Of a stretch of DNA of 64,000 nucleotides, positions 60,286-61,227 are shown piece by piece. The stretch's first letter is position 1. Each line of letters begins with the position of its first letter. Location of the stretch: NCBI RefSeq assembly GCF_003018115.1, contig NZ_CP027457.1. One strand, given 5' to 3'. The notes under the pieces were generated by a model. It ran no database searches. It worked only from the letters and a program-made list of their open reading frames with translations, and was not told the origin of the DNA. The stretch is from Escherichia coli (GTDB lineage Bacteria > Pseudomonadota > Gammaproteobacteria > Enterobacterales > Enterobacteriaceae). The position numbers and the translations under genes were made by a program.

Positions 60286-60301
60286 TGGCATAAGACCTGC
60301 A
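60286..60301 (+). promoter_or_regulatory. Putative sigma-54 promoter for argT
   Basis: tggcataagacctgca matches TGGCAC-N5-TTGCA (-24 GG / -12 GC). Confidence 0.55.
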
Positions 60302-60369
60302 TGAAAGAGCCTGCAAACACACAACACAATACACAACATAAAAAAGCCATTTTCACTTGAGGGTTATGT

Positions 60370-61152
60370 ATGAAGAAGTCGATTCTCGCTCTGTCTTTGT
60401 TAGTCGGTCTCTCCGCAGCGGCTTCCAGCTATGCGGCGCTACCGGAGACGGTACGTATCGGAACCGATACCACCTATGCGCCGTTCTCGTCGAAAGATGC
60501 TAAAGGTGATTTTGTTGGCTTTGATATCGATCTCGGTAACGAGATGTGCAAACGGATGCAGGTGAAATGTACCTGGGTTGCCAGTGACTTTGACGCGCTG
60601 ATCCCCTCACTGAAAGCGAAAAAAATCGACGCCATTATTTCGTCGCTTTCCATTACCGATAAACGTCAGCAGGAGATTGCCTTCTCCGACAAGCTGTACG
60701 CCGCAGATTCTCGTTTGATTGCTGCCAAAGGTTCACCGATTCAGCCAACGCTGGATTCACTGAAAGGTAAACATGTTGGTGTGCTGCAGGGATCAACCCA
60801 GGAAGCTTACGCTAACGAGACCTGGCGTAGCAAAGGCGTGGATGTGGTGGCCTATGCCAACCAGGATTTGGTCTATTCCGATCTGGCTGCAGGACGTCTG
60901 GATGCTGCGTTACAAGATGAAGTTGCTGCCAGCGAAGGATTCCTCAAGCAACCTGCTGGTAAAGATTTCGCCTTTGCTGGCTCATCAGTAAAAGACAAAA
61001 AATACTTCGGTGATGGCACCGGTGTAGGGCTACGTAAAGATGATGCTGAACTGACGGCTGCCTTCAATAAGGCGCTTGGCGAGCTGCGTCAGGACGGCAC
61101 CTACGACAAGATGGCGAAAAAGTATTTCGACTTTAATGTCTACGGTGACTGA
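60370..61152 (+). CDS. argT: Lysine/arginine/ornithine periplasmic binding protein
   Basis: 260-aa ORF with signal peptide; paralogous to hisJ. Confidence 0.92.
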
Positions 61153-61210
61153 TACGTCGCTGGGAAGCTGTACCTGATGGAATGATCATCATGGTGCACG
61201 CCAGGTTTGT

Positions 61211-61227
61211 TGCACTATCGTGGTGCA
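61211..61227. promoter_or_regulatory. Putative NtrC binding site upstream of hisJ
   Basis: tgcactatcgtggtgca matches TGCACCA-N3-TGGTGCA. Confidence 0.5.

Follow-up and report, generated by a model that had tools for sequence, protein, structure and literature searches.

Genomic context of argT and hisJ

The last 8 kb of the window, by which is meant the whole 64-kb stretch of Escherichia coli DNA that was analysed, carries folC, dedD, cvpA, purF, ubiX, argT, hisJ, hisQ, hisM and the start of hisP, all on the + strand. Two of these genes, placed by gene identity, frame the regulatory elements described here.

60370 to 61152, + strand: argT coding sequence (lysine/arginine/ornithine-binding protein)
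61373 to 62155, + strand: hisJ coding sequence (histidine-binding protein), first gene of hisJQMP

Of 5,426 complete E. coli genomes, 5,425 match positions 60100 to 61400. The strain is distinct from K-12, with 21 substitutions relative to MG1655 between 60050 and 62200. All of them are coding, and the ubiX-argT (265 bp) and argT-hisJ (220 bp) intergenic regions are both identical to those of E. coli K-12 MG1655. This identity permits exact conversion to published coordinates, the U00096.2 position being 2486183 minus the window position. The span from 60286 to 61227 runs from the first base of the first motif considered below to the last base of the second and includes the whole argT coding sequence; an Rfam scan of this region returned no matches.

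Conservation was assessed by a scan with the ArgT protein, which at one genome per species gave 80 loci, and the counts reported here are over 81 Enterobacteriaceae sequences from more than 20 genera, including Escherichia, Salmonella, Citrobacter, Enterobacter, Klebsiella, Raoultella, Kosakonia, Pluralibacter, Franconibacter and others.

The sigma-54 promoter of argT

The first motif lies in the ubiX-argT intergenic region, and its assignment draws on its rank in a position weight matrix (PWM) scan, its conservation and published binding.

60286 to 60301, + strand: argT sigma-54 promoter TGGCATAAGACCTGCA

This element, which reads TGGCAT-AAGAC-CTGCA, is on the sense strand, 68 bp 5′ of the argT ATG. 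Its −24 GG (60287-60288) and −12 GC (60299-60300) doublets are exactly 10 bp apart, the spacing expected of a sigma-54 promoter, and its two mismatches to TGGCAC-N5-TTGCA are both non-critical. The predicted sigma-54 start at about 60312 would give a 58-nt leader.

A count of TGGCAC-N5-TTGCA with up to two mismatches over the whole window gave 30 matches against 25.8 expected, with no enrichment over shuffled sequences. Because a plain consensus count of this kind is uninformative, a PWM was used instead, built from 41 other intergenic ChIP-bound sites with argT left out. The argT element scored 14.9 bits and ranked second among approximately 128,000 window positions. The first-ranked match (6628-6644, minus strand, within evgS) is itself the published sigma-54 site IS29, which validates the matrix. 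Every one of the 81 loci has its TGGCA and TGC cores unchanged, with variable flanks and a distance of 50 to 89 bp to the argT ATG.

The preliminary description, a reading of the DNA letters, had recognized a sigma-54-like −24/−12 element before argT, and the same element was recovered by genome-wide binding studies. In sigma-54 ChIP-seq, peak OS22 is assigned to the gene argT with the motif ATGGCATAAGACCTGCA, a centre at 2425890 (window 60293) and a distance of 58 (Bonocora et al. 2015; PMC4591121); the argT element is identical in sequence to this motif, and the predicted leader length also matches the published value. An RpoN-holoenzyme gSELEX peak lies between ubiX and argT (Shimada et al. 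2021; PMC8743547), and the same argT sequence was bound by sigma-54 in ChIP-chip of Salmonella LT2, in a study that counts argT with the experimentally shown sigma-54 operons (Samuels et al. 2013; PMC3844500). A 2019 paper describes argT as sigma-54/NtrC-dependent (PMC6640053), and the expression of a published argTp-lacZ fusion changes when GlnK, which exerts feedback on the Ntr system, is missing.

Tandem NtrC sites in the argT-hisJ spacer

Two NtrC sites are found downstream of argT, the stronger one marked by its uniqueness, conservation and a ChIP-seq peak, the weaker one by a direct repeat.

61182 to 61198, no strand assigned: second, weaker NtrC site ATGATCA-TCA-TGGTGCA, with four mismatches to the full consensus
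61211 to 61227, no strand assigned: strong NtrC (NRI) palindrome TGCACTATCGTGGTGCA, which reads TGCACTA-TCG-TGGTGCA

The strong palindrome begins 59 bp past the argT stop codon and ends 145 bp before the hisJ ATG. An NtrC-type palindrome had been reported here in the preliminary description as TGCACCA-N3-TGGTGCA, a claim that is borne out with one mismatch to the quoted form (T for C at position 6) and none in the two pentamer cores. It is the sole match with at most one mismatch in the 64 kb, where 0.02 are expected and where any match occurs in 2 of 100 shuffles; with the pentamer cores alone specified, it is the single perfect match in the 64 kb. The weaker site has a perfect right half and a degenerate left half, and its centre lies 29 bp 5′ of that of the strong site. 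A direct repeat, ATCATGGTGCA and ATCGTGGTGCA (ATC(A/G)TGGTGCA), marks the two sites at the same 29-bp spacing.

The spacer sites are widely retained. NtrC-like dyads (up to three mismatches) are found in the spacer in 75 of the 81 loci, mostly at about −114, −136 and −166 as counted from the start predicted by the hisJ-proximal TGGCAC described below, and many other genera have two or three such sites about 22 or 30 bp apart. Escherichia and Salmonella retain the palindrome with no more than two mismatches, and the GGTGCA half of the weaker site is near-invariant in a 16-species alignment. In two divergent E. coli strains that were sampled, neither the sigma-54 element nor the strong palindrome is touched by a substitution; in one of the two, 3 bp are deleted from the degenerate left half of the weaker site.

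In vivo occupancy of the spacer has been published. The NtrC ChIP-seq peak assigned to hisJQMP in nitrogen-starved cells extends from 2424941 to 2425021 with a 23.7-fold enrichment (Brown et al. 2014; PMC4066584). The strong palindrome corresponds to U00096.2 positions 2424956-2424972 and both spacer sites together to 2424956-2425001, inside this peak.

Were the argT element and the palindrome both chance resemblances with no regulatory role, the failure of two-mismatch TGGCAC-N5-TTGCA to be any commoner in the window than in shuffles would be as expected; the second PWM rank, the expectation of 0.02 palindromes per window and the invariance over 81 loci would not. The occupancy of these places by sigma-54 and NtrC in vivo, which has been published, together with conservation rules this reading out, and its probability is negligible.

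The region upstream of argT

The DNA between ubiX and the argT start codon holds several further elements.

60083 to 60130, no strand assigned: degenerate dyads TGCCCGCTGGCAGGGCG (60083-60099) and TGCCCTGTTTCAGGGCA (60114-60130), at −221 and −190 from the predicted argT start
60208 to 60216, + strand: extended −10 TGcTATCTT of an upstream sigma-70 argT promoter, with a start at about 60224 and a transcript that crosses the sigma-54 element
60316 to 60339, + strand: C/A-rich tract of the argT 5′UTR (mean C+A of 77% over the 45 nt after the predicted start, 81 loci)

No NtrC-like site with up to three mismatches was found within 340 bp 5′ of argT in Escherichia, Salmonella or Citrobacter. Elsewhere, NtrC dyads upstream of argT are present at fixed positions of −221, −208 or −190 in 33 of the 81 loci (Klebsiella, Enterobacter, Raoultella, Pseudocitrobacter and others), and the degenerate dyads of E. 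coli sit at positions where other genera have good NtrC sites. Dyad TGCCCTGTTTCAGGGCA doubles as a ubiX terminator-like hairpin in RNA folding. NtrC ChIP-seq signal at argT is weak, with a 5.4-fold enrichment at 2425861-2425941, and was added by eye (Brown et al. 2014; PMC4066584).

With no good NtrC site 5′ of argT, the sequence does not explain how NtrC gains access to argTp in E. coli, so the spacer sites might have argTp, 0.9 kb away, as an additional target. In the strongest form of this idea the spacer sites, at +878 and +907, would be mainly a remote enhancer of the argT promoter acting by DNA looping, and induction of hisJ under nitrogen limitation would be read-through from argT instead of a hisJ sigma-54 start. 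Reitzer and Magasanik reportedly found in 1986 that NtrC sites still function when moved kilobases from glnAp2. No good NtrC site other than the palindrome at 61211 is present in the 64-kb window, the sites at −221, −208 and −190 that 33 of the loci possess are missing from Escherichia, Salmonella and Citrobacter, and the weak ChIP signal over the argT promoter is what an indirect looped contact would give. Against this, an argT ‘promoter region’-lacZ fusion placed ectopically at the lac locus responds to glnK deletion 2.4-fold, compared with 3.2-fold for the native mRNA, the limits of the fragment being unstated. Moreover, genera with argT-upstream NtrC sites retain the spacer sites as well, and in most genera the distance from these spacer sites to the hisJ TGGCAC is constant and resembles that at glnAp2. 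An enhancer dedicated mainly to argT is on balance unlikely.

The sigma-54 element of argT is embedded in a region of sigma-70 transcription. The extended −10 TGcTATCTT is kept in all 81 loci, its start lying 78 or 79 bp 5′ of the first base of TGGCA in 73 of them, and a published argT 5′UTR clone starts with AGGACAATAATGCAACGTC, which is window position 60224; we infer that the 60208-60216 promoter is the source of this 5′ end. The sigma-54 motif has been mapped to +6 to +22 of a sigma-70 start at argT, and argT expression is lowered to 23% when sigma-54 (rpoN) is present (Schaefer et al. 2015). The argT sigma-54 site is therefore 3′ of sigma-70 starts, so that unactivated sigma-54 holoenzyme also damps sigma-70 transcription, as has been published.

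Conservation equal to that of the argT sigma-54 promoter is also seen in the extended −10 and in a CGATCAnATCC block. The idea that the conserved block at 60234-60259 is an RNA structure of the sigma-70 leader was rejected, since neither a consensus structure nor covariation was found among 14 species and the 113-nt leader folds no better than shuffles (z −0.6). A built-in sigma-70 scan of 60050-62300 returned no promoter, the method being blind to an extended −10 without a −35, and inspection of the conserved blocks by eye for IHF sites gave no convincing match. Within the argT leader, a very abundant RNA 3′ end maps to 60336. The C/A-rich leaders of argT are said to be targets of the GcvB sRNA, reportedly from work by Sharma et al. 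in 2007.

The hisJ promoter region

Between the NtrC sites and hisJ lie an ArgR operator, placed by inspection of the sequence, and what appear to be two superimposed promoters.

61232 to 61270, no strand assigned: two ARG boxes (ArgR operator), AATGCATACTTAAGCATT - TTT - AATGAAAAATAATACGTC, between the NtrC sites and the hisJ promoter
61288 to 61293, + strand: putative −35 hexamer TTGCCT of the sigma-70 hisJ promoter, starting 17 bp past the second ARG box
61309 to 61324, + strand: sigma-54-like element TGGCACGATAAGTGTA (TGGCAC-GATAA-GTGTA) 5′ of hisJ, 12.6 bits, rank 7 in the window

For an NtrC site to act, a sigma-54 promoter is required as its partner. The start predicted from the sigma-54-like element, at about 61335, would place the centres of the two NtrC sites at −116 and −145. 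In E. coli the element has GT at −12 in place of the canonical GC, a dinucleotide that is also present in the bound sigma-54 promoters pspA, pspG and Salmonella hydN (for hydN, PMC3844500). The TGGCAC half precedes hisJ in all 81 loci and is 63 to 67 bp from the ATG in 77 of them; the −12 half varies by lineage. Citrobacter has TGGCACGATAACTGCA, at 18.4 bits and with GC at −12, as in some others, and most Citrobacter, together with Pseudocitrobacter, Franconibacter, Superficieibacter and one Pluralibacter locus, have TGGCACGATAACTGC(A/T) at the hisJ position, at 17.6 to 18.6 bits. Salmonella has TGGCACGATAGCCGCA, with a CCGCA −12 half, and in Enterobacter the −12 half is lost, giving scores below 10 bits. 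PWM scores predict a strong element in Citrobacter, one of intermediate strength in Escherichia and in Salmonella, and its loss in Enterobacter, a distribution that is newly detailed here. When TGGCAC is fixed and the −12 halves are compared with background 10-mers, that of E. coli ranks among the best 2.6%, and one in three distinct variants scores beyond the 95th percentile.

Sigma-54 binding at hisJ is absent from the published E. coli ChIP-seq high-stringency list, its supplements and the gSELEX tables, and hisJ is unmentioned in the Salmonella sigma-54 regulon study (PMC3844500). The first of these absences also speaks for the spacer sites acting mainly on argT, as does the lack of any intrinsic-terminator-like structure, or of a T-run terminator, between argT and hisJ in E. 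coli; the spacer RNA folds just marginally better than shuffles. By RNA-seq, hisJ gave 109 RPKM with sigma-54 and 703 without (Schaefer et al. 2015), a drop that is compatible alike with argT read-through and with sigma-54 occupancy at hisJ itself.

The same bases would also serve a sigma-70 promoter. According to a 2019 paper, hisJQMP is sigma-70-dependent and ArgR-regulated, with two 18-bp ARG boxes that are 3 bp apart and 17 bp 5′ of the PhisJ −35 (PMC6640053). The ARG-box core TGCATAnTTA is kept in 70 of the 81 loci; a scan with the ARG-box consensus was not discriminating (35 matches against 34 expected). TGGCAC can be read as TG plus CACGAT, the probable extended −10 of the sigma-70 hisJ promoter, with TTGCCT and an 18-bp spacer completing the fit, and A−11 and T−7 are retained even in Enterobacter. 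TTTGC is found exactly 22 bp 5′ of TGGCAC in 75 of the 81 loci, whatever the quality of the −12 half. Since TGGCAC is invariant even where the −12 half has been lost, a sigma-70 extended −10 alone can explain its conservation.

The E. coli TGGCAC might be a sigma-70 extended −10 only, in which case spacer-bound NtrC would either modulate the sigma-70 promoter or the ArgR operator, or be an ancestral leftover with little effect. The published description of hisJQMP, the 22-bp offset that disregards the −12 half, the GT dinucleotide in Escherichia and the published sigma-54 site lists without hisJ all fit this reading. The palindrome speaks against it, being retained with at most two mismatches in both Escherichia and Salmonella and showing strong occupancy in vivo. 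The palindrome is also about 60 to 110 bp 5′ of the putative −35 and cannot occlude a sigma-70 promoter from there. Nor is NtrC known to act as an activator of the sigma-70 holoenzyme. Finally, a near-identical TGGCACGAT-N2-GTGTA is sigma-54-bound at Salmonella hydN (PMC3844500). A hisJ promoter served by sigma-70 alone is on balance rather unlikely. The most economical reading of the hisJ region is that an ancestral pair of overlapping sigma-70 and sigma-54 promoters existed at hisJ, and that the sigma-54 half may have drifted in some lineages.

A model for nitrogen control of the cluster

Taken together, the region most probably holds the elements through which the Ntr system controls argT-hisJQMP, the basic-amino-acid uptake cluster of E. 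coli, including a proposed hisJ-proximal target, and we put the probability of this reading at roughly 0.85. At sigma-54 promoters, oligomers of phosphorylated NtrC on tandem sites loop to the closed complex and open the promoter through ATP hydrolysis, and the activation step proposed for argT is taken from this established knowledge. Sigma-54 RNA polymerase, the binding of which is documented by ChIP-seq and gSELEX, would sit on 60286-60301 as a closed complex, unable to initiate at about 60312 until it is remodelled, with ATP, by phosphorylated NtrC, a form that builds up when nitrogen is limiting. Until then, the unactivated holoenzyme at argT would damp overlapping sigma-70 transcription, an effect that has been published.

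NtrC would occupy the spacer pair of sites 29 bp apart, the weak one at 61182-61198 and the strong one at 61211-61227, consistent with the ChIP-seq occupancy published for nitrogen-starved cells. The oligomer formed there most likely loops to a sigma-54 holoenzyme at 61309-61324, an element that would overlap the ArgR-controlled sigma-70 promoter of hisJ, and ArgR bound between the NtrC sites and the hisJ element may be able to modulate this loop. A broader version of the model, in which the tandem spacer sites are a shared enhancer for an unmapped weak hisJ sigma-54 promoter, superimposed on the sigma-70 one, and for argTp 0.9 kb away, and in which ancestral argT-upstream sites decayed into the ubiX terminator hairpin in Escherichia, Salmonella and Citrobacter, leaving these genera dependent on the downstream sites, is speculative and distinctly improbable as a whole.

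Significance

Work on Ntr control of argT-hisJQMP goes back to the 1980s. The argT sigma-54 site and the spacer NtrC site are already published, both of them in genome-wide binding maps, and the biology is known, so that their value as a discovery is small. The suggestion in the preliminary description of Ntr control of basic amino-acid uptake is in agreement with published sigma-54 and NtrC binding and with the described dependence of argT (PMC6640053). Their value is rather that of a positive control, two functional cis-elements having been picked by a reader without tools. The second NtrC site, the hisJ sigma-54-like element and the lack of a good argT-upstream NtrC site had been overlooked in that description, as had the sigma-70 promoters, ArgR boxes and C/A-rich leader of the same regions. 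Modest specialist interest attaches to the lineage-variable sigma-54-like element of hisJ, to the absence of argT-upstream NtrC sites from three genera and to the other, equally conserved elements. These comparative points frame the question of which promoter a natural NtrC enhancer serves.

Comparison with known systems

The closest counterpart is the argT (argTr) promoter of Salmonella Typhimurium, which has the same sigma-54 element, TGGCATAAGACCTGCA, bound in ChIP-chip of LT2 (PMC3844500), and the same gene order. In S. enterica subsp. diarizonae an NtrC palindrome without any mismatch, TGCACCATTTTGGTGCA, occupies the equivalent position of the argT-hisJ spacer, which is 236 to 237 bp long in the two Salmonella loci sampled compared with 220 bp in E. 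coli. The Salmonella dhuA (hisJ) spacer site was reportedly used by Ames and Nikaido in 1985 to define the NtrC consensus. The hisJ-proximal element of Salmonella, TGGCACGATAGCCGCA, retains the −12 GC but not the T at −14; the corresponding half in E. coli is GTGTA.

E. coli glnAp2 is an NtrC-activated sigma-54 promoter of the TGGCAC-N5-TTGCA type with two NtrC dyads approximately three helical turns apart, about 110 and 140 bp 5′ of the start. The hisJ spacer resembles it, with NtrC sites that would lie at −116 and −145 from the predicted start; argT does not, in that E. coli has no comparable NtrC pair upstream of it. The hisJ region also differs from glnAp2 in its non-canonical −12, in having no reported sigma-54 binding and in the ARG boxes that separate its NtrC sites from the promoter.

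The E. coli hisJ element TGGCACGATAAGTGTA is nearly matched by the Salmonella hydN promoter TGGCACGATTCGTGTA, which is bound in ChIP-chip (PMC3844500); two spacer bases differ, and both have the same GT at −12. As hydN has another activator, FhlA, and another context, the likeness makes sigma-54 binding at hisJ plausible rather than demonstrated. Overlapping sigma-70 and sigma-54 promoters are known from Salmonella glmY and glmZ (PMC3844500), and argT and hisJ appear to be alike in this respect. The argT sigma-54 site, which falls within the first stretch transcribed from a sigma-70 promoter and reduces the output of that promoter, recalls the class I and class II sites of Schaefer et al. (2015). 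At hisJ, the overlap suggested by the sequence would have TGGCAC serve at once as a sigma-54 −24 element and a sigma-70 TG-extended −10.

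Sequences upstream of argT

The region upstream of argT carries a 7-3-7 dyad that appears to take two forms among the 81 argT-hisJ regions compared across the Enterobacteriaceae. In E. coli, the sequence TGCCCTGTTTCAGGGCA forms a terminator-like hairpin of ubiX, whereas Klebsiella/Raoultella-type loci (L034, L050, L051, L056 and similar loci) have an NtrC-type dyad at the same position, of which TGCGCCACGATGGTGCA is an example. The changes that distinguish the hairpin state from the NtrC-dyad state are symmetric and affect both half-sites, a pattern pointing to a single 7-3-7 dyad that, judged from sequence comparison, appears to have changed over in the course of evolution from protein site to RNA hairpin or the reverse.

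The following features lie between this dyad and the argT start codon or close to the argT promoters:

60135-60150, CRP-like sequence TGCAA-N6-TCAAA
60143-60153, conserved block CGATCAnATCC
60234-60259, conserved block TGCAACGTCTTATTAACATATTTAACG, downstream of the sigma-70 start and upstream of the sigma-54 element
60336, + strand, RNA 3′ end in the argT 5′UTR

The CGATCAnATCC block is kept in 80 of the 81 loci, a degree of conservation equal to that of the argT sigma-54 promoter, and in 73 of the 80 it is found 143-144 bp 5′ of the sigma-54 TGGCA; the extended -10 of the sigma-70 promoter follows 65 bp after it in E. coli. It is overlapped by the CRP-like sequence, which scores 7/10 in E. 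coli and 8/10 in Salmonella and Citrobacter, and which is centred at -81.5 relative to the sigma-70 start at 60224.

Within TGCAACGTCTTATTAACATATTTAACG, TTAAC and GCA-C-T are unchanged across 17 species, and a search of the block for RNA structure or covariation found none that is conserved. A second sigma-70 start near 60280 is implied by Schaefer et al., for which TTAACA (60246-60251) could by its sequence serve as the -35; the matching -10 is not conserved.

Published Term-seq data place a very abundant RNA 3′ end (575,966 mean reads; LB, OD 0.4) at 60336 (NC_000913.3 2427825), and class it as neither Rho-dependent nor intrinsic. This end is 34 nt 5′ of the argT ATG and inside a C/A-rich tract (60316-60339). 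A putative stable fragment of ~113 nt, beginning at 60224, the sigma-70 start, and ending at 60336, would include the sigma-54 promoter sequence.

Sigma-54 signals elsewhere in the window

6628-6644, - strand, sigma-54 site CTGGCATACATTATGCA, inside a 1197-aa ORF (5048-8641, - strand)
57111-57181, + strand, naRNA4, a REP-derived nucleoid-associated RNA (Rfam match, 73.5 bits), in the dedD-cvpA spacer

The top match to the sigma-54 weight matrix in the entire window (17.9 bits) is CTGGCATACATTATGCA, which lies within evgS in the sense orientation and corresponds to IS29, an intragenic site in published sigma-54 ChIP-seq. The K-12 coordinate of IS29 departs by 4.85 kb from the linear mapping that holds at argT, implying an indel relative to K-12 between evgS and argT in this strain.

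A published RpoN-holoenzyme gSELEX peak (U00096.2 2429072, 'cvpA-purF-ubiX') maps to ~57111, and scanning the dedD-cvpA spacer with the sigma-54 matrix gave no good match. This in vitro peak may stem from the REP structure and not from a promoter.

A tRNA gene (21465-21536, - strand; Rfam RF00005, 63.4 bits) is also present, and has no relation to the argT-hisJ nitrogen-control sites.

The hisJ-hisQ spacer

62175-62206, + strand, GC-rich stable hairpin GCCCGCUCCCUUCGGGUAACCGGAGGGAG

An 89-nt fold of the intercistronic region has -33.2 kcal/mol (z -3.3). The hairpin is probably the element responsible for the higher level of hisJ than of hisQMP mRNA, judging by what is known of the Salmonella operon.
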